Shown here: positions 4,449 to 58,127 of the stretch, in pieces
How the letters are laid out: each line of letters begins with the position of its first letter
How positions within the stretch are numbered: position 1 is the stretch's first letter
Origin: Streptomyces sp. NPDC092296
GTDB taxonomy: Bacteria; Actinomycetota; Actinomycetes; Streptomycetales; Streptomycetaceae
DNA length: 64,000 bases
NCBI RefSeq assembly: GCF_044755465.1
Contig: NZ_JBIVRB010000010.1
Location: forward strand, 27,517-91,516
Reading direction: 5' to 3'
The notes under the pieces: model-generated
The model's database searches: none
What the model saw: only the letters and a program-made list of their open reading frames with translations
Told to the model about the DNA's origin: nothing
Made by a program: the position numbers and the translations under genes

Positions 4449-5739
4449 ATTCGAGGTCCAGGGCCTCGTGATCACCGATATCGCCGAGGAGTTCGGCACC
4501 CCGCTGTACCTCTACGACGGCGAGGCCCTGCGGGACCGGGTCAGCTCGCTCCGCGCGCTGCTCCATCCCCGGCTGGAGATCTTCTACTCGCTCAAGGCCA
4601 ATCCCAACGTCTCGGTCTGCGCGCTGCTCCACACGTTCGGCGCCAACGCCGAGATCTCCTCGCTGGTCGAGCTGCGCACCGCGCGGGCGGCCGGGGTGGC
4701 GCCGGAGGACATCCTCTTCCTGGGCCCCGGCAAGAGCGTCGAGGAGTTGGAAGCCTGCCTGGACGAGGGCGTCTTCGCGATCGTCTGCGAGTCCTTCGGC
4801 GAACTGGCCCTCATCGACGAGCTGGCCGCCCGGCGGGGGATCGTCGCCCGGGTCGCGCTGCGGGTCAACCCCGAGTTCGCGGTGAAGGGGTCGGGACTGA
4901 CCATGGGCGGCAAGCCACGGCAGTTCGGCATCGACGAGGCCCAGTTGCTGGCCGCGTCCGACCTGGCCGACCGCCACCGGCACGTCCGGCTGGTGGGCAT
5001 CCAGACCTATATGGGAACCAGAATCCTCGCCGCCGGTGCGGTGGTGGAGAACACCGAGCGGATTCTCGCGCTGGCGGAGCGCGTCTCGACCCGGCTGGGC
5101 TTCCCGCTGGAGCTGGTGGACGTCGGCGGCGGCCTGGGCGTGGCGTACTTCGAGGGGGAGGAGGACCTGGACCCGGCCGAACTGGCCACCGGGATCAACC
5201 CGTTGATCGCGGCGTTCGCGGACCGGCACCCCGGGGTCCGGCTGGTGATGGAGCTCGGCCGCTACCTGACGGCGGAGGCGGGCACCTATGTCACCCGGGT
5301 GCGCTATGTGAAGGAGTCCATGGGCCAGCGGTTCGCGGTGGCCGACGGCGGCACCAACCACCACATGGCGGCCGTGGGCATCGGCTCCTTCATCAAGCGC
5401 AACTTCCCGCTGGCCGTGCTCAACCGGCTGGACGAGCCGCCGACCGAGCTGTGGAACATCACCGGTCCGCTGTGCACCCCCAGCGACACCCTGGGCAAGC
5501 GGGCGCTGCTCCCGCCGCTCCGGGCCGGCGACCTGATCGGCGTGGGGCGCTCGGGCGCCTACGGGCCCAGCGCCTCGCCGGTCCTCTTCCTCAGCCACGG
5601 CCACCCGGCGGAGGTCCTGGTCTGGCGGGGCCGCGCCCACCTGGTCCGCCGACGGGACCGGGCGGAGGACCTGCTGGACCGGCAGCAGCTCGCCGACCTC
5701 GGTGAGCCGGCCGACCTCACCGCGAGCCCGGCCGGCTGA
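4438..5739 (+). CDS. PLP-dependent decarboxylase, fold type III (Orn/DAP/Arg decarboxylase family; BtrK-like candidate)
   Basis: The 433-aa protein carries the FYSLKANPN PLP-Lys motif and an overall diaminopimelate-decarboxylase-like architecture. The GTG start overlaps the upstream stop by 11 nt. Confidence 0.85.
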   Translation: MPAEFEVQGLVITDIAEEFGTPLYLYDGEALRDRVSSLRALLHPRLEIFYSLKANPNVSVCALLHTFGANAEISSLVELRTARAAGVAPEDILFLGPGKSVEELEACLDEGVFAIVCESFGELALIDELAARRGIVARVALRVNPEFAVKGSGLTMGGKPRQFGIDEAQLLAASDLADRHRHVRLVGIQTYMGTRILAAGAVVENTERILALAERVSTRLGFPLELVDVGGGLGVAYFEGEEDLDPAELATGINPLIAAFADRHPGVRLVMELGRYLTAEAGTYVTRVRYVKESMGQRFAVADGGTNHHMAAVGIGSFIKRNFPLAVLNRLDEPPTELWNITGPLCTPSDTLGKRALLPPLRAGDLIGVGRSGAYGPSASPVLFLSHGHPAEVLVWRGRAHLVRRRDRAEDLLDRQQLADLGEPADLTASPAG

Positions 5740-5821: not shown

Positions 5822-6097
5822 ATGACCGAGACCAGCACCCACACCCCCGACCGCGCCGAGGTGATCGGCGTCATCGGCCGCTCCCTCGTCGTCGTCCTCG
5901 GCGACGGACTGCCCGCCCTCACCGAGGAGTCCCGCCTCTTCGACCAGGTCGGCCTGGACTCCAACGGCGTCTTCGAGCTGCTGATGGAGCTGGAGGAAGC
6001 CCTCGGCATCGAGCTGGACACCGACAACCTGGAGATGCGGCACTTCGAGAGCCTCGGCTCCCTGGCGGACTTCCTGCTCGCGGAGATGAGCAGCTGA
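5822..6097 (+). CDS. Stand-alone acyl/peptidyl carrier protein
   Basis: The 91-aa protein MTETSTHTPDRAEVIGV... has a phosphopantetheine-site motif (GLDSNGVFELLMELEE). The track ORF 5702..6097 is over-extended; ATG at 5822. Confidence 0.75.
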   Translation: MTETSTHTPDRAEVIGVIGRSLVVVLGDGLPALTEESRLFDQVGLDSNGVFELLMELEEALGIELDTDNLEMRHFESLGSLADFLLAEMSS

Positions 6098-11866: not shown

Positions 11867-12363
11867 GGGCCCTCCCCCGAAGAAACAACGCCCGAAGAAA
11901 CAACGCCCGAAGAAACAACGCCCGGAGAGACGACGCCCGGACAGGCGCTGGGCGGAGAGAGGCTGGGCGGATAGACGATGCGCAGCTTCGCCACCGGTCC
12001 GTGCGGGCCGTCGAGTCGGACGGCGGCCCGGGTGCCGCCCTCGGTCTCCTCGACCACGGCCTCCAGCCGGAGCCGCTCCTGCGGACGCACCGGCGCCAGG
12101 AATCTGGCCCGCTCCAGCAGCAGCGGCTGCTCCGGCTCCCGCCCGAGCGACCGGCACAGCAGGGTGTGCACCCGCTGGACCATGAAGAGTCCTGGGACCA
12201 GGGCGAACCCGGGGTAGTGACCGGCCTGGACGGCATCGTCCGGCCCCACCGCTCCGGCGCCGCGCAGGACCGTCCGGCCGTCGGTCTCCGCCGGCTCCAG
12301 CCGGTCCAGCGGCGGCACCGGTACGGCGGCCCGCTGCCCCGCGTCAGCCGGCCAGGACCGCAC
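11863..12363 (-). CDS. FabZ/FabA-like hotdog dehydratase (subunit 1) with C-terminal (GVVSS)n repeat tail
   Basis: The 166-aa protein contains [18 protein letters not shown], the FabZ QGHFPG.P..PGVL catalytic motif. Its stop overlaps the downstream GTG (GTGA). The C-terminal [25 protein letters not shown] tail is encoded by 15-bp tandem repeats. The start is uncertain (GTG at 12363 or downstream). Confidence 0.6.
11878..11945 (-). repeat. 15-bp tandem repeat (gaagaaacaacgccc x3 plus a variant) within the 3' end of the hotdog dehydratase gene
   Basis: Direct reading shows gaagaaacaacgccc gaagaaacaacgccc gaagaaacaacgccc ggagagacgacgccc. The repeat is in frame and encodes GVVSS repeats on the minus strand. 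Confidence 0.85.
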
Positions 12364-17175: not shown

Positions 17176-17918
17176 TCACCGCCGTGACCCGACGGCTGAC
17201 CGGAGCGCCGCCGCCGGTGACGGCCACCCCTCGGGCGGGCGTGGACCTCTGCCTCCTCGACCTGCGGACGGTCGACGGGACCCGCCTCGACACCTGCGTC
17301 CTGGACGAGGAGGAGCACACCCGCCGACGGAGCCTGCTGCGCAGCGGTGACCGCCGCCGCTTCACGGTGGCTCACATCGCCCTGCGCCGCCTGCTCGCCC
17401 GCCGGATCGGCACGGACGCCCGCTCTCTGGCCTTCACCCGCGAGCCGTGCCCGCTCTGCGCCGGCCCGCACGGCCGTCCTGCGGTGCTGCGGCCGTCGGC
17501 CGAGGTGCACTTCTCCCTCTCCCACGGGGGTGACTTCGTCCTGGTCGGCCTGGCCGACCGGCCGATCGGGGTGGATGTGCAGCCGTTCCCCTCGGGCCTT
17601 CGCCTCAAGGGGATGCTGCGCGCGCTCCACCCGGCCGAGCAGACCGAATTCGCCGCCCTCCCACCGGACGCGGACCCGGCCGCCGCCTTCGCCCGCCTCT
17701 GGTCCCGCAAGGAGGCCTACCTCAAGGCCCTGGGCACCGGACTCGCCCGTGGCCTGTCCACCGACTACCTCGGCACCACCGGCCTTGCCCCCACCCCCCA
17801 GGGCTGGCACATCGCCGACCTCGCACCCGTCTCCTCCCACGCCGCCGCCTACGCCCTCCCCGGCCCCGCACCGGCCGCCCTGCGCATCCGCAGCCTCCCG
17901 GCCGCACTCGTCTACTGA
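17176..17918 (+). CDS. Sfp-type 4'-phosphopantetheinyl transferase
   Basis: The protein carries FSLSHGGDFVLVGLA..GVDVQ and WSRKEAYLKALGTG motifs. The track ORF starts at 16971, and in-frame GTGs near 17176, 17215 and 17239 are more plausible starts, so the start is uncertain. Confidence 0.7.
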
Positions 17919-18055
17919 CCTCTTCGGCTTGCGCGTCGGCCCGCCCCAGCCGGGCCGCTGAGCCGATAGACCGGCCACTGCCGTGACAGGTGTGACTCCG
18001 GGGAAAACATCACTCGTAAGGGTGAACTGACGCTGCGTGGTGACGCGGTGACGGC

Positions 18056-19501
18056 GTGTTCGATCAGGATGGCCGAAGCCCCGCCGCAGCAGTGATGCCT
18101 ACGGCCGGCGGGGTCTCAACGCCATCTGTGGGGGTTTTCCTCTTGTCTTCCGTCTTCTCCGTCATACCCGGCCGCCGCTCTGGCGCGGTGGCCGCGCTCG
18201 CCGCCGGGCTCGTCGTGGCCGGCCTGCCGGCCACCGCCGGTGCCACCGGCACGCCGTCCGGGCACGCCTCGGCCGTCGCCGCCGATGTGCAGCTGGACGT
18301 CAACCTGCTCAACAAGGGCATCGACATCCCGGTGAACGTCTCGCTCAACAAGGTCACCGCGCCCGGCCAGAGCGGCGGCACCCTGCTCACCGCCCGGGTC
18401 GACGGCGTCTCGCAGGGCGCCCCGCTGACCCTGGTCAAGGCCGCCGTCGGTGACACCCGGGCCACCGTGGACGCGTCCGGCGCTCGGGCCTCGGTCCGGC
18501 TGGTCGACGCCGACGTCCATGTGCCGGGTCTGCCCTTCACCTCGCTGCTCGGCCTGCGGACGGTCGAGTCCTCGGTCGACTGCCCGGTGCACGGAGCGCC
18601 CACCGCCGCGTCGAACCTGCTGGGTACGGTCACCGTCCTGGGTCGCAAGGTCACGCTCTCCACCGCCGGTGCCACCCAGGTGACGGTGCCCGGGGTCGGC
18701 GAGGTCTCGCTCGAGCTGTCCAAGCGGTCCACCACCTCGACCACCGCCGCCGCGACCGCGCTGGAGCTGACGGTCTCGGTCAACCCGCTCAAGCTGAACG
18801 TCGCGGAGGTCACCGGGCGGGTCACGGTGGCCGCCGCGAGCTGCCAGAAGCCCGGCACCCCCGCCACGCCGCCGCCCACCGGCCACCCGACGCCGTCGCC
18901 GTCCACGTCGACTGCGCCGGGGTCGACCTCGGAGGGCTCCACCGCCGGCTCCACGGCTGGTTCGACCTCCGGTTCCACTGCCGGGTCCACCGCCGGGTCG
19001 ACGGCTGGTTCGACGGCCGGTTCCACCTCCGGTTCCACTGCCGGGTCGACGGCTGGTTCGACGGCCGGGTCCACCGCCGGGTCGACGGCTGGTTCCTCGG
19101 CCGGTTCCACCTCCGGTTCCACTGCCGGTTCGACGGCTGGCTCGACGGCCGGTTCCTCGGCCGGTTCCACCTCCGGTTCGACGGCCGGTTCCTCGGCTGG
19201 TTCCACCGCCGGGTCTTCCGCAGGCTCGACGGCCGGTACGACCTCCGGCTCGTCCGCAGGTGCGACGTCCGGCGCCTCCTCCGGCGGCCCGACCGCAGGC
19301 GGTACGACCGGGGGCCAGCAGACCGGCGGCCAGCAGACCGGCGGTGCGCCGACCGGCCCGCAGTCCAGCGGCGCCGGCCTGGCCGAGACCGGCAGCAGCG
19401 GCACCCCGCTGATGGCCGGCGGCGCCGCCGCGCTGGTCGCGGCGGGCGTCGGCTCGCTGCTGGTGGCCCGCCGCCGCAAGGGCCGCAAGGCCCGGGGCTG
19501 A
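18056..19501 (+). CDS. Secreted cell-wall-anchored protein (LAETG sortase motif) with long (STAG/SSAG)n low-complexity repeat
   Basis: The protein has a signal-like N-terminus (RRSGAVAALAAGLVVAGLPATAGA) and about 130 residues of GSTA repeats. Its C-terminus is LAETG followed by a hydrophobic stretch and RRRKGRKARG. The start is ambiguous (GTG at 18056 or ATG at 18095). Confidence 0.7.
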   Translation: MFDQDGRSPAAAVMPTAGGVSTPSVGVFLLSSVFSVIPGRRSGAVAALAAGLVVAGLPATAGATGTPSGHASAVAADVQLDVNLLNKGIDIPVNVSLNKVTAPGQSGGTLLTARVDGVSQGAPLTLVKAAVGDTRATVDASGARASVRLVDADVHVPGLPFTSLLGLRTVESSVDCPVHGAPTAASNLLGTVTVLGRKVTLSTAGATQVTVPGVGEVSLELSKRSTTSTTAAATALELTVSVNPLKLNVAEVTGRVTVAAASCQKPGTPATPPPTGHPTPSPSTSTAPGSTSEGSTAGSTAGSTSGSTAGSTAGSTAGSTAGSTSGSTAGSTAGSTAGSTAGSTAGSSAGSTSGSTAGSTAGSTAGSSAGSTSGSTAGSSAGSTAGSSAGSTAGTTSGSSAGATSGASSGGPTAGGTTGGQQTGGQQTGGAPTGPQSSGAGLAETGSSGTPLMAGGAAALVAAGVGSLLVARRRKGRKARG

Positions 19502-19506
19502 GCATC

Positions 19507-19550
19507 GGGTCCGCCCGTCGCCCTGGAGGGGAGGCGGCGGGCGGACCACG
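19507..19550. terminator. Hairpin between convergent genes
   Basis: The inverted repeat is gggtccgcccgtcgcc...ggcggcgggcggacc. Confidence 0.5.
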
Positions 19551-19553
19551 GCC

Positions 19554-21131
19554 TCAGCCGGTCGGCATCGACGTACGGTCCGGCGCGGGCACCTCGGCCG
19601 GAACGCCCGGCGCCCCCGGCAGCCGCCGCAGCAGGATCGCGGCGAGCACCCCGGCCACGGTCAGCAGCACGGCGGCGCCGATGGCGGCGGCGTGCAGCCC
19701 GGAGCAGAAGGCGTCCCGGGCGGCGGCCAGGACGGCGCCCCCGGTCCGCCCCGGCAGCCCGCCCGCCGCCGCCAGTGCGCCGCCCAGCGTCTCGCGGACG
19801 GTGTCCAGGGTCGGGCCGGACAGCCCGGACGGCGCCGCCCGCACCACATCGTGCCGGTACACGGCGGTGCCGATGCTGCCCAGGACGGCCATGCCCAGCG
19901 CACCGCCGAACTCCTGACCGGTCTCCAGCAGCGCCGAAGCGGCCCCCGCGCGCTCCGGCGGCACGCTCCCCAGGAACAGATCGCTCACCAGCGTCATCGC
20001 GGTGACGATGCCCACGGCGGCCACCCCGGCGCCGAGCAGTACCACCCAGAGCGCGGTGTCCGGCCGCAGTACGGTCATCAGCACATAGCCCCCGGCCGCC
20101 AGCAGGAACCCGCCGCCGATCAGCAGCGCCCGGTCCACCCGCCGGCCGAGCACCGCCGCGACCGGTGCCACCGCGCCGACGCCGACCGACGGCACCAGGC
20201 ACCACAGCGCGGCCGTCAGCGGGCTCAGGTCGAGCACCGACTGGAGGTACTGCATCGAGAAGACGGTGAAGCCGACCAGGGCGAACATCGCCACCGCGTT
20301 GACGGTGATCGACCCGCTGAACCCCCGGTCCCGGAAGAGCGCCAGCTCGATCATCGGCTCCGGCCGGGTGCGCTGGCGGTGCAGGAAGACCACGCCGACC
20401 GCCAGCCCGGCCACGACGGCGGCGACCGGAGCAGCGCCGATCCCGTCCGCCGCCAGCTCCTTGAGCCCCCACACCGCCGGCAGCACCGCCGCCAGCGACA
20501 GCGCCGCGCCGAACAGGTCGAACCGGCCCGCCGCCGGATTGCGGGACTCCGGCACCAGCAGCGGGGCCAGCACCAGCAGCAGCACCATGAACGGCGTGTT
20601 GACCAGGAAGACCGACCCCCACCAGAAGTGGTTCAGCAGCAGCCCGCTGAGCACCGGCCCCAGCGAGACCCCGGCCGCCGAGACCGCCGTCCAGACGGCG
20701 ACGGCGGTGCCGCGCTGCCGCGCGTTGTGGAACATGTTGCGGATCAGCGCCAGCGTGGAGGGCATCAGGGTGGCCCCGCCGATGCCGAGCAGCGCCCGGC
20801 AGCCGATCAGCATCTCCGCGCTGGTGGCGTACGCGGCCGCGACCGACGCCGCGCCGAACGCCGTCGCACCGATCGTCAGCAGCCGTCGGCGGCCGATCCG
20901 GTCGCCCAGCGATCCCATGGTGATCAGCAGCCCGGCCAGTACGAAACCGTAGATGTCGAACATCCACAGCTGCTCGGTGCCGCTGGGCTCCAGGTCCCGG
21001 CTGATGAACGGCACCGCGAAGTACAGCACCGACACATCCATCGTGGCCAGCAGCAACGGCAGCAGCAGCACCCCCAGCCCGATCCACTCCCGGCGTCCCG
21101 CGAGCGGGCCGCCGACTGCGCTGTCGTCCAT
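19554..21131 (-). CDS. MFS transporter, DHA2-like 14-TMS drug:H+ antiporter
   Basis: The protein starts at ATG 21131 with SD GGAGAAG, giving MDDSAVGGPLAGRREWIGLGVLLLP... It has the MFS motif region LGDRIGRRRLL and multiple hydrophobic segments. The track's 539-aa version is over-extended by 14 aa. Confidence 0.85.
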   Translation of the reverse strand: MDDSAVGGPLAGRREWIGLGVLLLPLLLATMDVSVLYFAVPFISRDLEPSGTEQLWMFDIYGFVLAGLLITMGSLGDRIGRRRLLTIGATAFGAASVAAAYATSAEMLIGCRALLGIGGATLMPSTLALIRNMFHNARQRGTAVAVWTAVSAAGVSLGPVLSGLLLNHFWWGSVFLVNTPFMVLLLVLAPLLVPESRNPAAGRFDLFGAALSLAAVLPAVWGLKELAADGIGAAPVAAVVAGLAVGVVFLHRQRTRPEPMIELALFRDRGFSGSITVNAVAMFALVGFTVFSMQYLQSVLDLSPLTAALWCLVPSVGVGAVAPVAAVLGRRVDRALLIGGGFLLAAGGYVLMTVLRPDTALWVVLLGAGVAAVGIVTAMTLVSDLFLGSVPPERAGAASALLETGQEFGGALGMAVLGSIGTAVYRHDVVRAAPSGLSGPTLDTVRETLGGALAAAGGLPGRTGGAVLAAARDAFCSGLHAAAIGAAVLLTVAGVLAAILLRRLPGAPGVPAEVPAPDRTSMPTG

Positions 21132-30424: not shown

Positions 30425-30650
30425 CGCCCCGGTCGACGTGACGGCGGCCAGAGTCTCCTGGCTCCCGGATCAGCGCACCCCCGGGCCTTCCAACCGCACG
30501 TTCGCGGCCGTGGCCGACTCCCGCAGCGGGGCTGGTGGAGTCGGGGGTGCTCCCCGGTGACAGTGGCGGGACCGCGCCGGATTCGCACCGGACTTCCTCG
30601 TCAATGCCGCCGTGTATGGCCCGGAAATCCCATCACGCCCCCGGCCCCCA
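30425..30650 (-). promoter_or_regulatory. Cobalamin (B12) riboswitch upstream of cobI operon
   Basis: The reverse complement reads GGAAGTCCGGTGCGAATCCGGCGCGGTCCCGCCACTGTCACCGGGGAGC...GGGAGCCAGGAGACTCTGGCC. This matches the conserved B12-riboswitch core and B12 box (GCCACTG) as remembered from the Rfam cobalamin family. Confidence 0.8.
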
Positions 30651-42959: not shown

Positions 42960-44461
42960 GGTGCGCCCGGGGGCGTGAACGGCGGGCCCTGGGCGGGCAC
43001 GCCGTCCTCGATCAGCCGCCAGAGCGCGGCGGTGTCGGCGTGCTGTTCGATCAGGTCGCCCAGCCGGTCGAGGCGCTGCTCGCGGGCGGCGGCGAAGCTG
43101 CTGTCCGGTGCGGCGGTGAAGTCGCGTCCGGCGAGCCGGGCGACCTCGGTCAGGAAGGCGCGGCGGAAGCCGTCGTTCTCCAGCGCGCCGTGCCAGGTGG
43201 TGCCCCAGACGGCGCCGCTGCGGCAGCCGTCCAGAAACGGTTCGCCGCCCTCCACCGCGACCACGCCGTGGTGGATCTCGTACGCCTCCACCCGCTCGCC
43301 GTACGCCTGGCCGACCGGGCGGCCGAGGGTCTTCTCCCGGGCGAACTCCACCCGGACCGGCAGCAGCCCGAGGCCGGGCACCTCACCGGCCCGCGACTCC
43401 ACCCGGTCGACGATCAGCCGGGAGAGCATCTGGAAGCCGCCGCACACCCCCAGCACCGGCCGCCCGTCGGCGGCCCGCCGGGTGATCGCGTCGGCCAGGC
43501 CGCGTTCGCGCAGCCAGGCCAGGTCGGCCACGGTGGCCCGGGTGCCGGGCAGCACCACCAGGTCGGCGTCCGCGATCTCCTCCGGCCGCGACGCCCAGCG
43601 GACCAGCACTCCCGGCTCCTGCGCCAGCGCGTCCAGGTCGGTGAAGTTGGACAGCCTCGGCAGCCGCACCACCGCGACCCGCAGCACCTCGGCGCCGTAC
43701 GGGGCGGCCACCCCCTCGCCGCCCCGGTCCACGGCGGTGGCCAGGTCGAGGGAGTCCTCCGCGTCCAGCCAGAGCCCGGAGAGCATCGGCAGCACCCCCA
43801 TGACCGGACGGGACGTCAGCTTCTCCAGCATGTCCAGCCCGGGTTGCAGCAGCCGGACGTCGCCACGGAACTTGTTGACCAGCCAGCCCGCCACATGCCG
43901 CTGGTCCTCGGCGTCCAGCAGCGCCAGCGTCCCGTACATCGAGGCGAAGACCCCGCCCCGGTCGATGTCCCCGACCACCACCACCGGCAGTGCGGCGGCC
44001 GTGGCCAGGCCCATGTTGGCGATGTCCCGGTCGCGCAAGTTGATCTCGGCGGGGGAGCCGGCGCCCTCGCAGACCACCACGTCGAAGCGGTGCCGCAGCT
44101 CGGCCAGGCACTCCAGGGCCCGCGCCAGCAGCAGCGGCTTGCGCTCCCGGTAGTCCAGCGCGCCGACCTCGGCCACCGGGCGGCCCAGCAGCACCACCTG
44201 GCTGCGTCCGTCGCCGCCCGGCTTGAGCAGCACCGGGTTCATCGCCGCCTCGGGCGCCACCCGGGCGGCGGCCGCCTGCATCGCCTGGGCGCGGCCGATC
44301 TCGGCGCCGTCGGCGGTGACCATCGAGTTCAGCGACATGTTCTGCGCCTTGAACGGCGCCACCCTGACGCCCTGCCGGGCCAGCCAGCGGCAGATCCCGG
44401 CGGTGACCACGCTCTTGCCCGCGTCCGAGGTGGTCCCCGCCACCAGCAGCGCCCCGCTCAT
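42956..44461 (-). CDS. cobQ: Cobyric acid synthase
   Basis: ATG at 44461 gives [27 protein letters not shown]... The protein is CobQ/CbiP with a C-terminal GATase. ATGA overlap with the cbiB stop. The track ORF 42956..45283 is over-extended. Confidence 0.85.
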
Positions 44462-45438
44462 CGGCCCGCCCTCCGGCTGCGCAGCCGGCCGGCCGCCCAC
44501 CGCGCGGTGACGGTGGCGCCCAGCGCCAGCAGCCCCACCCGGCGGGACAGCAGGCACGCCCGCTCGATGTCCGCGACCTGGACCGGCCGCAGTTCCGCGC
44601 CCAGCACCGGGCGGTGCTCCACCCGGCTGCCGTACGCCAGTGTCCCGCCCAGCCGCACGCCCAGCGCCCCCGCGAACGCCGACTCGGCCTGCCCGGCGTT
44701 GGGGCTGGGGTGCGCCGAGCCGTCCCGCCGCCACACCCGCCAGGCCCGGCCCGGCTCGGGCGCGGCGGCGACGGTCAGCAGCGCGGTCAGCCGGGCGCCG
44801 GGCCAGCCCGCCACGTCGTCCAGCCGGGCGGCGGCCCAGCCGAAGCGGCGGTGGCGCGGGGTGCGGTGGCCGACCATGGCGTCCAGGGTGTTGACCGCGC
44901 GGAAGGCCAGCAGCCCGGGGGTACCGGCCAGGGCGCCCCAGGTCAGCGCGTTGACCACCGCGTCGGCGGTGTTCTCCGCGACGGACTCCACCACGGCGCG
45001 GGCCAGCTGCGGGCCGTCCAGGTGCTGCGGGTCGCGCCCGCACAGATGCGGCAGCCGGGCGCGGGCCGCGGCCAGGTCGCCCGTCTCCAGCGCGGCGGCG
45101 ATGGTGCGTGCCTCGCGGGACAGCGAGGTGCCGCCGAGCACCGTCCAGACGGCGCCCGCCGCCAGCAGCGCCCGCGCCGGGGCCCGGTGGCCGAGCGTCC
45201 GTTCGGCGGCGACCGCGCCGACCGCGACGGCGCCCACGCACAGGGCGGTGTGGACGGCGCCGGCGGCCCGGTGGTCGCGCCACAGGCGGCGCTCCAGCGC
45301 GGCGGCGGCGGTGCCGAAGGCGGCCACCGGGTGGCCGCGCCGGGGGTCGGCGAGCAGGGCGTCGACGGCGTACCCGGCGACCGCACCGACGGCGAAGGCG
45401 GTGGGCCCGGGTACGGCGCGCGCAACCGGCGTGCGCAC
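44458..45438 (-). CDS. cbiB: Adenosylcobinamide-phosphate synthase (CbiB/CobD family)
   Basis: In-frame GTG at 45438 gives [42 protein letters not shown]... (CbiB HP..FG motif), about 326 aa. The track ORF extends antisense through the riboswitch. Confidence 0.8.
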
Positions 45439-45539
45439 GCCGGTCAGCCGCTGCGGCGGGTGGACGGGTGGGGGCGGGACGGCCCCGAGGGTCGGTCGGG
45501 TACCCGGGCAGCCTGCATCGCGCGTGTCCTCACTCAGGG

Positions 45540-45740
45540 TCCGCGCCCTGGATCGACGAGCCGGCGGCGAGAGTCTCCTGGCTTCCGGATCGGCACACCC
45601 CCGGGCCTTCCAGCGGCCGGTTCGCGGCTGCCGTGGCCATGGTTCGAGGGTGCTCCCCGGTGACAGTGGCGGGACCGCGCCGGATTCGCACCGGCTTCCT
45701 CTCCATGCCTCCGTACTGGCCCGAAGATCCCACCACGCGC
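45540..45740 (-). promoter_or_regulatory. Cobalamin (B12) riboswitch upstream of cbiB-cobQ-cobN operon (paralogue of the element at 30425-30650)
   Basis: The reverse complement contains GGAAGCCGGTGCGAATCCGGCGCGGTCCCGCCACTGTCACCGGGGAGCACCC and GGAAGCCAGGAGACTC, nearly identical to the core of the first riboswitch. Confidence 0.8.
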
Positions 45741-45822
45741 CCGGTCGCAGCGTCAACACGGTGCGGGGAGGGTTCGGTCACACTCCACCCCTGCGACCTG
45801 CGGCTCTGCCGGATGTGGCGGT

Positions 45823-46059
45823 CTGCGGTCGGGTGGGCGGGGGTGGTCGGGTGGGTGGGTCGTGGGGTCAGGCGGCTGTCTCGGCGCGGTGCGGGGGCCG
45901 TCCGGCGGTGGCGTGGGGCAGGCGGTGTACGGCCGGATGCGGGGGCCTGCGGTCGGGCGGGCGGGGGTGGTCGGGTGGGTGGGTCGTGGAGTCAGGCGGC
46001 CGTCTCGGCGCGGTGCCGGGGCCGCCCGGCGGTGGCGCGGGACAGGCGGTGTACGGCCA
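45823..46059. repeat. Tandem duplication of a ~112-bp G-rich unit (125-bp period), 2 copies
   Basis: The unit ctgcggtcgggtgggcgggggtggtcgggtgggtgggtcgtggggtcaggcggctgtctcggcgcggtgcgggggccgtccggcggtggcgtggggcaggcggtgtacggcc repeats 125 bp later with about 8 substitutions. Confidence 0.85.
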
Positions 46060-46424
46060 GATCGGCGGGCGCGGCGGGCCGGGCGGGGGCGGGCAGGGCG
46101 GTGGTGCCCGGGGCTGCTTCGGCCGGGGCGGCGGCCAGGCGGACCAGCCCCACCGCTCTGCCGAGCGGTTGCGCGGCGGCCCCCGGCAGCTCGTCCGCAG
46201 GCGGCGCGAACGCCCGGTCCTCCAGCCAGGACATCCCGAGCAGTAGCAGGAGCAGCAGCGGGGGGACCAGCAGGCCGACAAGCACGATCATGACTACCGC
46301 CTGGGTTCGGGCACGGAAGCGGCGGCAGCAGCGCTGCCCCGCCACGGGACGCCGGCCGCCGGGAAGCCTCACCCCGCACCGCGGCCTTCTCTGCGGCTTG
46401 CCGCCCTCGCCGCTCGCAAACGCC

Positions 46425-46625
46425 CCCCGGCCTGCCAAGCCCCGCAGCCCGCCAAGCCCCCCCGGCCCGCCAAGCCCCCCCGGCCCGCCAAGCCCCCCCG
46501 GCCCGCCAAGCCCCCCCGGCCCGCCAAGCCCCGCAGCCCGCCAATCCCCCCGGCCCGCCAAGCCTCCCAGCCCGCCAAGGCCCCCGGCCCGCGAAGACCC
46601 CGGCCCCGCGAACGCCCCCGCCCCG
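46425..46625. repeat. Tandem array of ~10 degenerate 18-bp units (cccgccaagcccccccgg)
   Basis: The array reads ...gcctgccaagccccgcagcccgccaagcccccccggcccgccaagcccccccgg... and continues with degenerate units to gcgaacgcccccgcc. It is not explained by any confident CDS. Overlapping ORFs translate only to PAKPPR, PPSPPG or GLGGPG repeats. Confidence 0.8.
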
Positions 46626-46687
46626 CGCACCCGCCGGTCGGCCGTGCGCCGGGAGTGCTCCCCTGGCCCGGTGGCGGGCGGCCCGGC

Positions 46688-47755
46688 ATGCTGAGCGCCA
46701 TGGACACGACGTGGATGCTGTACGGGGCCAACGGCTACACCGGCCGGCTGATCGCACACCTCGCCGTCGAACGCGGCCACCGCCCGCTGCTGGCCGGCCG
46801 GTCGGCGGCCCCGGTCGCCGCCCTCGCCGCAGAGCTGGGCCTGGAGCACCGGGTCTTCGACCTCACCGACGCCGCCGCCGTCCGCACCGCGCTGGCCGGG
46901 GTCGGCGCGGTCGCGCACTGCGCGGGGCCGTTCTCCGCCACCGCCGTGCCGCTGGCCGAAGCCTGCCTGGCCACCGGCACCCACTACCTGGACATCACCG
47001 GTGAGATCGACGTCTTCGAGCAACTGCACGCCCGGGACGGCGACGCCCGCGCGGCCGGGGTGGTGCTGCTGCCCGGGGCCGGCTTCGACGTGGTGCCCAC
47101 CGACTGCCTGGCCGCCATGGTCGCCGCCGAGGTCCCCGGCGCCGACCGGCTCGACCTGGCCGTGCTGCCCGGCCGCGGCCTCAGCCCCGGCACCGCCAGG
47201 ACCGTGCTGGAGGGCCTGGCGCTCGGCGGCCGGGCCCGGGTCGGCGGCCGGATCGTCCCGGTGCCGCCCGGTTGGCGCAGCGTACGGGCGGACTTCCCCT
47301 CCGGGCCGCGTACCGTCCACTCCATCCCCTGGGGCGATGTCGCCACCGCCCACCACTCCACCGGCATCCCCGGCACCACCACCTACGCCGCGCTGCCCGC
47401 CGCCGCCCGCCGCGCCCAGAGCCTGGCCGCCCCGCTGCTGCGCCGCCCCGCCGTGCGGCGCGCGGCCGGGCTGCTGGCGGACCGGCTGCTGCCCGGCCCG
47501 GACCGCGCCCACCGGGCCCGCTCCCGCGCCGAGGTCTGGGCCCGCGCCTCCGCCCCCTCCGGCGAGGCGGCCACCGCCGCCCTGAGCTGCCCGGACCCGT
47601 ACGACCTCACGGCCGACAGCGTGCTGCGCGCCGTCACCCTGCTGCTGGCCGCCGACCTCCCGCCGGGCACCCACACCCCGTCCACCGCCTTCGGCGCCGA
47701 CTTCGTCACCACCCTGGACGGGGTCAAGCTCACCGGCCCCACCCCGACCCCCTGA
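46688..47755 (+). CDS. Saccharopine-dehydrogenase-like NAD(P)-binding protein
   Basis: The protein M(LSAM)DTTWMLYGANGYTGRLIAHLAVERGH..AGRS has a Rossmann GxxGxxG motif at its N-terminus and matches the saccharopine dehydrogenase NADP-binding family by eye. ATG at 46688 or 46700. Confidence 0.65.
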   Translation: MLSAMDTTWMLYGANGYTGRLIAHLAVERGHRPLLAGRSAAPVAALAAELGLEHRVFDLTDAAAVRTALAGVGAVAHCAGPFSATAVPLAEACLATGTHYLDITGEIDVFEQLHARDGDARAAGVVLLPGAGFDVVPTDCLAAMVAAEVPGADRLDLAVLPGRGLSPGTARTVLEGLALGGRARVGGRIVPVPPGWRSVRADFPSGPRTVHSIPWGDVATAHHSTGIPGTTTYAALPAAARRAQSLAAPLLRRPAVRRAAGLLADRLLPGPDRAHRARSRAEVWARASAPSGEAATAALSCPDPYDLTADSVLRAVTLLLAADLPPGTHTPSTAFGADFVTTLDGVKLTGPTPTP

Positions 47756-47822
47756 AGCACCGACCCCCTGAGGCACCGGGCCCCTGAAGCGCCGACCCCC
47801 TGAAGCACCGGGCCCCGGGCCC
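47756..47822. repeat. Four tandem ~16-bp repeats (ccctgaagcaccgrsc) in convergent intergenic region
   Basis: The sequence ctgaagcaccgaccccctgaggcaccgggcccctgaagcgccgaccccctgaagcaccgggcc fills the entire gap between two convergent stops. Confidence 0.8.
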
Positions 47823-52545: not shown

Positions 52546-52612
52546 GCCGCCGGGCTCAGGGCTTCTGAGGGCGCTCAGGGTTTCTCGGGGTGCTCAGGAC
52601 TTCTCGGGGCGC
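52546..52612. repeat. Three and a half tandem 19-bp hairpin-containing repeats (gctcagggyttctsrgggyg)
   Basis: The sequence ctcagggcttctgagggcgctcagggtttctcggggtgctcaggacttctcggggcgctcagggcc lies between convergent stops. Each unit contains ctcag...ctgag. Confidence 0.75.
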
Positions 52613-53074
52613 TCAGGGCCGGCCGGCGGTCGCGGGTCGCGGCCAGGGGCGGCCCTGGGCCCGCTCCACGCTCCGGTTGAAGTGGGTGAGGGCGTCCACC
52701 AGCCGGTCGACGTCCGACTGCGGCCAGTCGGCCAGCAGCTCGGCCAGCCTGGCGTGGAAGCCGGCCCGGTCGGCGGCCAGCTGCCGACTGCCCTCGCCGC
52801 TGATGCTGAACTTGCGGGCCAGGCCGCCGTCCGGGTCGGGGATGCGCCGTACCAGGTCGGCCCGGAGCAGCGCCGCCGTCTGCCGGTTGACGGTCGAGAC
52901 GTCCAGCTGGAAGGCGTCGGCGAGCTGGTTGATCGACATCGGGCCCTCCGCCTCCAGCCTGCTGAGCAGCAGATAGGCGGAGTGGTCCAGCTCGCCCAGG
53001 CGGCGGGCGCCCTGCACCTGGTGGCGGGCGAGCAGCATCAGTTCGCGCTCGACCGCACCGACGTTCTCCGGCAC
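52613..53074 (-). CDS. MarR-family transcriptional regulator
   Basis: GTG at 53074 (SD GGGAGG) gives about 153 aa with a wHTH (SINQLADAFQLDVSTVNRQTAALLRADLVRR). The track ORF is 208 aa and over-extended. Confidence 0.8.
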   Translation of the reverse strand: MPENVGAVERELMLLARHQVQGARRLGELDHSAYLLLSRLEAEGPMSINQLADAFQLDVSTVNRQTAALLRADLVRRIPDPDGGLARKFSISGEGSRQLAADRAGFHARLAELLADWPQSDVDRLVDALTHFNRSVERAQGRPWPRPATAGRP

Positions 53075-57879: not shown

Positions 57880-58060
<181 letters not shown>

Positions 58061-58127
58061 GTGGCGGCCGCGGAGCCCCCGGCGGTCCGGTACGGGCGGC
58101 CGATGACGGCGGCCGCCCGCCCGGGGT

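Follow-up and report, generated by a model that had tools for sequence, protein, structure and literature searches.

The gap at 45760-46690 of the window, by which we mean the whole 64-kb stretch of DNA that was analysed, contains a small membrane-protein gene and two tandem repeat blocks and adjoins a vitamin-B12 riboswitch. The features of the locus are the following:

45572..45700, minus strand: cobalamin riboswitch aptamer (RF00174, 73.9 bits), preceding cobD (45438..44458) and cobQ
45727..45756, minus strand: promoter-like block TTGACG-N18-TGGGAT immediately before the riboswitch aptamer; the variable region is bounded here on its lower side
45757..45991, minus strand: untranslated spacer from the small-gene stop to the riboswitch promoter, 235 nt, enlarged by duplication
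45808..45931, no strand: 124-bp repeat copy 1, an out-of-frame, untranslated duplicate of the small gene's 3' end, stop and trailer
45831..45867, plus strand: canonical G-quadruplex (G4) motif in repeat copy 1, with equivalents at 45955-45983 and 46067-46098
45932..46055, no strand: 124-bp repeat copy 2, comprising in minus-strand order the small gene's translated last 21 codons, the stop (45992-45994) and a 60-nt C-rich trailer
45992..46291, minus strand: small membrane-protein gene, 99 aa (MIVLVGLLVPPLLLLLLLGMSWLEDR...DLAVHRLSRATAGRPRHRAETAA) plus stop
46056..46089, no strand: incomplete third copy (76% identity), whose minus strand is rich in C, within the small gene's Ala/Pro-rich linker
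46292..46429, minus strand: non-coding but conserved element before the small gene (promoter, 5' UTR or both), from alignments with relatives
46412..46638, no strand: 17/18-bp tandem array of about 12 units, minus-strand unit CGGGGGGGCTTGGCGGGC
46440..46632, minus strand: two clusters of overlapping G4 motifs over the array (46440-46556 and 46566-46632)
46700..47755, plus strand: saccharopine dehydrogenase-family gene, divergent from the small gene; upper boundary

A small membrane-protein gene beside the cobalamin riboswitch

The riboswitch-controlled operon downstream of the small gene is cobD-cobQ-cobN. The TTGACG-N18-TGGGAT block before it was invariant in every relative examined, and full-length Rfam matches begin at the last base of TGGGAT. 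Since a simple sigma-70 consensus scan gave no matches and did not flag the block, its promoter status is one that we infer. At the other boundary, the annotated start of the saccharopine dehydrogenase-family gene at 46700 agrees exactly with that of MFJ6215793.1. Rfam was searched with 45700-46750 and gave no RNA family match up to E = 10, and a 39-nt likeness to the riboswitch core at 46640-46678 (72%) was judged to be chance because Rfam found nothing there.

The first-pass annotation had correctly placed the repeats beside the B12 riboswitch promoter and had seen no convincing gene among them. This latter view does not hold. Comparative genomics, the approach by which it had itself said that it could be refuted, reveals a conserved coding gene at 46291..45992 on the minus strand, with syntenic homologues in five other genomes, purifying selection and a GenBank annotation (hypothetical protein ACIQGZ_21035 / MFJ6215792.1 of Streptomyces sp. 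NPDC092296); the product is a 100% match to P0001. The minus-strand hydrophobic peptide MIVLVGLLVPPLLLLLLLGMSW, which had been pointed out before, is indeed present, with its ATG at 46291, and the codon-position GC pattern agrees with the frame 46291..45992. Over the first 30 codons, dN/dS was 0.101/0.694 (about 0.15) against L081 and 0.093/0.412 (about 0.23) against L088, values which, in this small sample, indicate that the gene is under protein-level purifying selection. AlphaFold gave a helix at residues 2-27 (pLDDT 81-95) and pLDDT values of at most about 54 outside it. The protein has a single N-terminal transmembrane helix and a juxtamembrane S-W-x-E-D motif, followed by a tail that evolves fast and, judging from the model, is probably disordered. 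Searches of Pfam and NCBIfam with five members of the family, at E up to 10, found no relevant match. Taken together, 46291..45992 is a real, conserved and lineage-restricted gene. The earlier suggestion of a repetitive small membrane protein was right about the membrane protein but not about its repetitiveness, as the 18-bp array lies outside the gene and only the last 21 codons fall within the 124-bp repeat.

Homologues of 51-102 aa were recovered as P0123, P0002, L083:3305-3613, L087:3589-3744 and P0125-P0129, a narrow range covering Peterkaempfera and Streptacidiphilus. An exhaustive phmmer search with the 33-aa N-terminus returned P0001, P0002 and P0123 only, the query being too short for the Streptacidiphilus subfamily, whose members were found through synteny and a profile search; pairwise BLASTP joined the two subfamilies at E = 1e-09. 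In every member, a single membrane helix at the N-terminus is accompanied by SWxED, which is invariant, and by a variable, probably disordered tail, and twelve or thirteen N-terminal positions are invariant across the alignments. The linker of the homologous gene carries a frame-preserving 33-nt indel between two genomes with 99% identical cobD, and the DLAVHRLSRATAGRPRHRAETAA C-terminus resembles the P. bronchialis tail DLAVRRLARVTAARGRARHRARSAA. This is a previously undescribed family of small proteins, marked by one transmembrane helix, SWxED and a hypervariable tail in which indels and short repeats readily arise.

A cobalamin riboswitch and cobD lie just downstream of the small gene in all six carrier genomes, one of them with an IS110 element between. 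The gene stands on the same strand and immediately upstream of both in the window, L081, L083, L087, L088 and L090; in L091, an IS110 element separates it from them. Both the small gene and the repeats are absent from Peterkaempfera sp. SMS 1(5)a, which is the closest GTDB species representative, from P. griseoplana and from Kitasatospora. The closest CobD in the collections searched was 88% identical, and a sister genome was not found there. That the family is locked beside a B12 riboswitch/cobD operon in Peterkaempfera and Streptacidiphilus gives it a modest wider interest. Like the CbtB-type proteins, it is a small single-pass membrane protein encoded near B12-riboswitch-regulated genes; unlike them, its gene lies upstream rather than downstream of the riboswitch, and the protein has neither a His-rich tail nor a Pfam or NCBIfam match.

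Two tandem repeats of local sequence

Both tandem repeats are real and lie where they had been reported; TRF and a repeat search led only to small numeric corrections. The duplication described as 125 bp is tandem, with a TRF period of 124, and the array described as about ten 18-bp units is likewise genuine and consists of about 12 units of 17/18 bp. Each is made of head-to-tail copies of one unit, as in tandem duplications and minisatellites.

For 45808-46089, TRF gave 2.3 copies with 89% matches and a score of 450. The repeat search resolved two full 124-bp copies (45808-45931 and 45932-46055, 92% identical) and a 34-nt partial third copy at 76%, a similarity that may in part be compositional in such low-complexity sequence. 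The partial copy ends in ATCTGGC, like the ATCCGGC end of the 124-bp unit, which gives the duplication junction a microhomology. Since 124 = 3x41+1, successive copies are out of frame with one another. Copies 1 and 2 differ at 10 positions, five of them in the formerly coding part, where three of the five are non-synonymous: copy 1 shows the changes S>P, R>H and R>P, whereas copy 2 keeps the residues common to P0123, including Arg at two of the three sites. The protein is unchanged by the duplication, since the first copy reached by the ribosome still has the stop. The 124-bp unit does not behave as a low-complexity coding repeat, its length not being a multiple of 3 and copy 2 alone being translated. 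The locus thus exemplifies how a stop-spanning tandem duplication can lengthen an intergenic spacer and leave the protein unaltered.

The array takes its sequence from the conserved element upstream of the small gene. This element contains an invariant block, GGGCGGCAAGCCGCAGAGAAGGCCG (46379-46403), and CCCAGGCGGT precedes the ATG; the 20-mer GGCAAGCCGCAGAGAAGGCC occurs once in the window (46383-46402) and also in L081, L082, L083, L088 and L089. When metagenomes were scanned for the conserved 21-mer ATGTCCTGGCTSGAGGACCGG, the one match, in an unrelated FadL-like gene, was due to chance. The element is not coding, because indels among relatives are not multiples of 3; the same indels led us to reject an in-frame upstream extension of the small ORF through the array. 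A uORF from the GTG after AGAGAAGG was also rejected, the codon being CTG in L081.

TRF counted 11.8 copies in the array (46422-46626), and a manual layout placed 13 units across 46412-46638, with a core of four identical 18-nt units (46447-46518) flanked by degenerate 17-nt units. The 5' edge of the small gene's conserved upstream element serves as the proximal unit, CGGGGGGCGTTTGCGAGC. With up to 3 mismatches allowed, the 18-mer had 10 matches in the array and 12 window-wide against 1.65 expected by shuffling, a total reached in none of 100 shuffles. The array is absent from the relatives examined; the 17-nt units break its frame, and no ORF through it was found in a collection of 15 billion proteins. 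The genes on its two sides carry consecutive GenBank protein accessions (MFJ6215792.1 and MFJ6215793.1). The array is therefore not coding; it arose locally, from amplification of the GGGGGCGTTTGCG motif found at the upstream element's 5' edge. The divergent spacer between the small gene and the saccharopine-dehydrogenase gene, in which the array is placed, is a synteny breakpoint: in relatives, DUF4235 and BrkB genes or other genes occupy this position. A CRISPR array was considered and rejected: the units abut, at a 17-18-nt spacing that equals the unit length, instead of being set apart by unique spacers of similar length.

No further copies of the repeat units, that of the array included, were found in the 64-kb window, in 92 comparison loci or in plasmids, and BLASTN of the whole region against plasmids gave no match. 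The MIRUs of Mycobacterium tuberculosis are a family scattered over about 40-50 loci and show signs of having been inserted (PMC3184786). The MIRU-VNTR loci and the present repeats are alike as head-to-tail intergenic repeats, of tens to about 100 bp, in a high-GC actinobacterium. On the authority of Supply et al. 1997, PMC3184786 describes MIRUs as containing open reading frames and as overlapping adjacent genes at their ends, a feature to which the 124-bp unit, including its neighbouring gene's end and stop codon, may be compared. They differ in that both units here are local duplications of native sequence, not dispersed in the window or the 92 loci. Both repeats look like ordinary products of DNA slippage rather than a new functional element.

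Spacer, G-quadruplex motifs and possible roles of the repeats

The RNA of the 235-nt spacer that precedes the riboswitch promoter contains 54% C and 24% G and is poorly structured, folding no better than shuffled sequence (z = +0.69). The corresponding spacer measures 54 nt in L088, 86 in L081, 85 in L083, 22 in L087 and 0 in L090. A shorter C-rich trailer (C 56%) also follows the stop in L081 and L083. A consensus scan of 45400-46800 found no intrinsic terminator, defined as a GC-rich hairpin with a U tract. In sequence terms, the spacer has the make-up expected of a Rho-dependent terminator, being C-rich, G-poor, unstructured, untranslated and about 80 nt or more in length. It resembles rut sites as a long RNA of this kind just past a stop codon. 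The rut criteria are those of general knowledge, and the likeness, drawn from the sequence, is set against the existence of family members without the trailer.

The two repeats have opposite G/C skew, as had been described (GC skew +0.48 in the first and -0.46 in the second), and together with a poly-G region near 58 kb they form the most skewed 200-nt windows in the 64 kb. ORFs over them translate to low-complexity sequence (PPSPPG, GLGGPG and similar), again as described. The G4 prediction proposed in the first-pass annotation was run with a regular expression (G3+N1-7 x4) and G4Hunter (1.5-2 or more), and it returned canonical motifs with scores of 2 or more. The motifs in the first repeat score up to 2.28, and the strand on which they are G-rich serves as template for the small gene; cluster 46440-46556 is the longest G4-motif cluster in the window, and both repeats are among the strongest. 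The idea of G-quadruplexes therefore stands at the level of motifs with G4Hunter scores of at least 2, which are expected at 75% GC; by motif and score the repeats qualify as G-quadruplex-forming sequences, whose folding and effect on transcription are putative. They are like the promoter-associated G4 motifs of GC-rich bacteria in being canonical motifs in intergenic DNA near promoters, and differ in being motifs only, which arose via amplification of one unit.

The locus consists of a lineage-restricted small membrane-protein gene and its conserved upstream element, flanked by tandem duplications which we consider likely to be near-neutral and mediated by slipped strands or microhomology. 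Duplication of the last 21 codons, the stop and the 60-nt trailer has left the second copy as an untranslated, frame-shifted relic, and has extended the spacer before the riboswitch promoter from the 0-86 nt of relatives to 235 nt. On this reading, neither repeat would have a selected function, and the G4 motifs and strand skew would be by-products of amplifying units rich in G/C runs in a 75% GC genome with many short arrays between its genes. As the most plausible side effect, the enlarged trailer, which is C-rich, unstructured and untranslated, may load Rho better and so shield the riboswitch promoter from read-through. The result is chiefly a correction, in that a 900-bp "repeat desert" turns out to be an annotated, uncharacterised small gene with two ordinary tandem duplications.

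Against neutrality, the C-rich trailer is common to L081 and L083 and the amplified upstream motif is conserved, so that some selected role is possible. If the repeats were selected regulatory elements, the duplicated trailer, G4-prone on the template strand, would be a Rho-dependent terminator or G4 roadblock against read-through from the small gene, and a G4 or i-motif of the array would tune the divergent promoters. Such a role agrees with the composition and lack of structure of the untranslated 235-nt trailer RNA, with the shorter C-rich trailers of the two relatives and with the G4 motifs, scoring 2 or more, in each repeat unit. It also accords with published work, as a survey found intergenic enrichment of bacterial G4 motifs (PMC12563890) and G4PromFinder uses G4 motifs as a feature in promoter prediction in S. 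coelicolor (PMC5801747). However, G4 motif density climbs steeply with GC content (PMC12563890), and the repeats themselves are not conserved in the relatives examined. Moreover, the family has no need of the trailer, because the spacer is 0-22 nt in Streptacidiphilus members and in S. rugosus the -35 hexamer of the riboswitch promoter contains the small gene's stop codon. We regard selection for both elements as unlikely, while leaving it some weight. Should the repeats prove to influence read-through into the riboswitch, this locus would offer a small, naturally occurring system for testing Rho or G4 insulation in a high-GC actinomycete.

A broader, joint reading is improbable. It would tie the small protein to B12/cobalt metabolism, with its transcription entering the cob operon, the trailer acting as a Rho/G4 insulator and the array as a hypermutable tuner. 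The insulating duplicated trailer would then uncouple the small gene from the cob operon in this strain, and the array, as an amplified promoter-proximal motif of the small gene, would tune the divergent promoters.

Little credit is also given to the array as a hypermutable contingency locus, in which slippage would alter motif copies or promoter spacing and so switch the small gene and/or the saccharopine-dehydrogenase gene. In its favour, a core of four units without a single difference suggests that the array expanded recently, what was amplified is a motif at the edge of a conserved upstream element, and the genes on either side of the array are divergent; against it, the divergence of the 17-nt units on the flanks shows that most of the array is old. 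Its position between divergent genes and its identical-unit core are reminiscent of the phase-variable promoter repeats of Neisseria and Haemophilus, whose units are 1-7 bp as opposed to the 17-18 bp found in the single strain read here.

That the repeat structure is an assembly artefact, collapsed or expanded, is very improbable. The assembly is a draft (206,830-bp contig), and a 44-nt poly-G run elsewhere in the window casts some doubt on G-rich regions. Yet ordinary reads should resolve both repeats, given 10 differences between the 124-bp copies and an identical array core of only 72 bp, and the copies match a coherent evolutionary picture.

We can give almost no weight to a low-complexity protein encoded by the array or the whole gap, Pro-rich on the plus strand or Gly-rich on the minus strand (for example, an N-terminal extension of the small protein): both strands do have stop-free frames, the GLGGPG frame of the minus strand has the same phase as the small ORF, and a plus-strand ATG at 46290 opens a 134-codon frame ending at the saccharopine-dehydrogenase start, but each 17-nt unit shifts the frame, the 130 nt between the array and the ATG vary by non-multiple-of-3 indels in relatives, the ORFs are absent from the 15-billion-protein collection and relatives lack the array, and stop-free frames are expected where A and T are nearly missing.

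Five more short arrays were seen in the 64-kb window, all of them in intergenic spacers.

A small gene in the repeat-dense gap

The first-pass annotation described 45760-46690 as a repeat-dense 900-bp gap with no convincing gene. We found there a minus-strand ORF encoding a 99-residue protein (P0001) identical to the NCBI hypothetical protein ACIQGZ_21035/MFJ6215792.1, and the window-encoded protein is 100% identical to a Streptomyces sp. NPDC092296 protein. The features of the region are as follows.

45438..44458, minus: cobD, followed by cobQ on the same strand
45572-45700, minus: cobalamin riboswitch (73.9 bits), preceding cobD
45756..45727, minus: TTGACG-N18-TGGGAT block, directly upstream of the aptamer
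46291..45992, minus: small gene
46700 (start), plus: saccharopine-dehydrogenase-family gene, with a start identical to that of MFJ6215793.1

Homologues of the small protein
P0123: 78 aa, Peterkaempfera bronchialis
P0002: 91 aa, Streptacidiphilus sp. ASG 303
ORF in locus L083: 102 aa, Streptomyces sp. NPDC001380
ORF in locus L087: 51 aa, Streptacidiphilus sp. BW17
P0125-P0129: 51-74 aa, S. fuscans, S. rugosus, S. monticola and two metagenome contigs

All homologues share M1, L7, P11, L18, G19, S21, W22, E24, D25 and P30, and the two subfamilies of the protein match each other across the first 32 residues in pairwise BLASTP (E = 1e-09). For the 30 N-terminal codons, dN/dS came to 0.101/0.694 against the relative locus L081 and 0.093/0.412 against P. 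bronchialis (L088), and the reading frame agrees with the position-specific GC pattern. AlphaFold, run on the family alignment, predicted a helix spanning residues 2-27, with pLDDT of 81-95 over the first 30 residues and about 54 or less beyond them; the family matched no Pfam or NCBIfam entry. A conserved protein-coding gene is thus what comparative genomics revealed, the outcome that the first-pass annotation itself had named as refuting its reading, and the annotated ORF with its homologues, synteny and low dN/dS overturns the view that the gap holds no convincing gene. Taken together, we conclude that the product is a real, lineage-restricted single-pass membrane protein. The repetitive small membrane protein entertained earlier survives in its membrane part, but not with the 17/18-bp array as coding sequence.

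In L081, L083, L087, L088 and S. rugosus (L090), the riboswitch and the genes cobD-cobQ-cobN directly follow the small gene on its own strand. An IS110 element separates the small gene from the riboswitch in S. monticola (transposase gene, L091 4439-5665, containing an Rfam Ms_AS-4 sRNA hit in antisense orientation at 5272-5353), and in Peterkaempfera sp. SMS 1(5)a and P. griseoplana, which are without the gene, a short gap takes its place. The other side varies among relatives, carrying DUF4235 and BrkB, an RHS toxin gene or a DAO-family oxidase gene. DUF4235 and BrkB separate the small gene from the dehydrogenase gene in L081 and L083; in P. bronchialis, RHS/YD-repeat toxin genes lie upstream beside a phage-integrase fragment (L088 1193-4950). 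Throughout the clade this upstream DNA is a hot spot for rearrangement, and the 17/18-bp array sits at a synteny breakpoint.

The TTGACG-N18-TGGGAT block does not vary among the aligned relatives, and full-length Rfam riboswitch hits in the relatives start at its last base. We infer that it is the riboswitch promoter; a simple consensus scan for promoters did not flag it. A second cobalamin riboswitch lies at 30452-30598 (minus, 63.4 bits). The riboswitch core (45635-45673) also has a 39-nt direct similarity (72%) to 46640-46678, just upstream of the dehydrogenase start, which we attribute to chance, since an Rfam scan at E up to 10 gave no hit.

A duplication across the stop codon

Tandem Repeats Finder and the repeat search bore out two types of tandem repeat in this gap, although their reported lengths of 125 and 18 bp need correction to 124 bp and a mixed 17/18-nt period. 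The first repeat (45808-46089, period 124, 2.3 copies, score 450) comprises full copies at 45808-45931 and 45932-46055 with 92% identity and a 34-nt partial copy with 76%; a window search found the unit core only in its own two copies. Read on the minus strand, the unit CGTACACCGCC...GCCGCCTGA consists of the last 21 codons and stop of the small gene and then a C-rich trailer of 60 nt. The translated C-terminus DLAVHRLSRATAGRPRHRAETAA comes from copy 2 and is similar to the P. bronchialis tail DLAVRRLARVTAARGRARHRARSAA, while copy 1 comes after the stop and, because 124 = 3x41+1, is out of frame relative to copy 2. As a result of this anatomy, the protein is unchanged and the spacer is enlarged. 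The stop-to-(-35) distance is 235 nt in the window and 54, 86, 85, 22 and 0 nt in L088, L081, L083, L087 and L090, respectively. In S. rugosus the stop is the TGA within the -35 hexamer TTGACG (L090 4187-4200), and therefore transcription of the small gene must run into the riboswitch.

The two copies differ at 10 positions, five of them in the coding part, where three are non-synonymous (S/P, R/H, R/P); copy 2 retains the residue present in P. bronchialis at both Arg positions. Although the numbers are small, this pattern is consistent with release of copy 1 from constraint. The unit closes with ATCCGGC and is immediately preceded by the similar ATCTGGC, a microhomology consistent with slippage or illegitimate recombination.

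The protein tail is fast-evolving and indel-prone throughout the family. It carries short repeats of 15 bp x 3.8 copies in L081, 30 bp x 2.4 in L083 and 15 bp x 2.9 in L088. The cobD DNA of L081 and L083 is 99% identical and the N-terminal 125 nt of their small genes almost so; the linker alone is hypervariable (L081 6127-6245 versus L083 3431-3582), with a frame-preserving 33-nt indel and clustered substitutions.

The trailer RNA (54% C, 24% G) is no more stably folded than its shuffles (z = +0.69), features that agree with what is generally expected of a Rho loading site. Family members without any trailer show that it is dispensable.

The upstream array and its origin

Upstream of the small gene, Tandem Repeats Finder reported a period-17 array of 11.8 copies (46422-46626), which laid out by unit comprises 13 units (46412-46638): four identical 18-nt core units (CGGGGGGGCTTGGCGGGC) with degenerate 17-nt units to either side. 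The 18-mer has 10 matches inside the array and 12 across the window, versus 1.65 expected by chance. We ruled out a coding array, as its 17-nt units do not keep a constant reading frame; no ORF through it was found among the ~15 billion proteins of the collection, and the consecutive GenBank accessions of the small-gene and dehydrogenase-gene proteins also count against it.

Upstream of the ATG, a stretch of 130 nt is conserved in four loci.

46292-46429, minus: conserved element in the window
5867-6000: in L081
3171-3304: in L083
4864-5000: in L088

Its indels are not multiples of three, so the stretch is non-coding. It contains an invariant 25-mer, GGGCGGCAAGCCGCAGAGAAGGCCG, with the dyad GCGGC-AA-GCCGC, and matched no Rfam family; RNAalifold predicted a long-range stem, GGGTTTG/CGARCCC, beside the ribosome-binding site, with minimal covariation among the four sequences. 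The element may be a promoter, an operator or a 5' UTR. The proximal array unit, GGGGGGCGTTTGCGAGC, is the 5' edge of this element, and in relatives the motif is single-copy, without an array. The array is thus an amplified form of a motif that belongs to the locus itself. Three components account for the region, namely a conserved small gene, a tandem duplication that spans a stop codon and a minisatellite of local origin, and nothing indicates a new kind of element.

Strand skew and other arrays in the window

The opposite strand skew reported for the two repeats was confirmed, with GC skew up to +0.48 over the 124-bp repeat and -0.46 over the array; these repeats and a poly-G region near 58 kb are the most skewed windows of the 64 kb. 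Each 124-bp copy has canonical G-quadruplex (G4) motifs on the plus strand, and those on the minus strand across the array form the longest cluster in the window; many of the 25-nt windows that reach G4Hunter 2.0 (only 0.45%) fall in the repeat region. The earlier G4 suggestion is borne out for motifs and scores. In a survey of bacterial genomes, motif density rises exponentially with GC content and intergenic enrichment is general (PMC12563890). At the 74.7% GC of the window, motif presence is therefore expected and uninformative on function. In S. coelicolor, G4 motifs serve as a promoter-prediction feature (PMC5801747). The top G4Hunter scores and strongest skew belong to an extremely G-rich intergenic tract at 57882-58064, with a homopolymer of ~44 G (roughly 58007-58050), which could be real or a poly-G sequencing or assembly artefact.

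Short tandem arrays occur in five other intergenic spacers of the same 64 kb. With genes delimited by third-position GC, those at 1948-2002 (15 bp x 3.7), 11876-11939 (15 bp x 4.3) and 52554-52619 (19 bp x 3.5) fall within intergenic gaps or on their borders, so the genome appears prone to intergenic microarrays. The CCGACCCCCTGAAGCA array (47744-47816, 16 bp, 4.2 copies) first covers the final codons and the stop (47755) of the saccharopine-dehydrogenase gene and then occupies the convergent spacer as far as the DAO-family gene end (47823). In a 1.6-kb stretch where the crude GC3 gene map called no gene (17918-19554), a 36/48/84-bp repeat of TCCACCGCCGGT-like units (18938-19285) may encode a repetitive Gly/Thr/Ser-rich protein.
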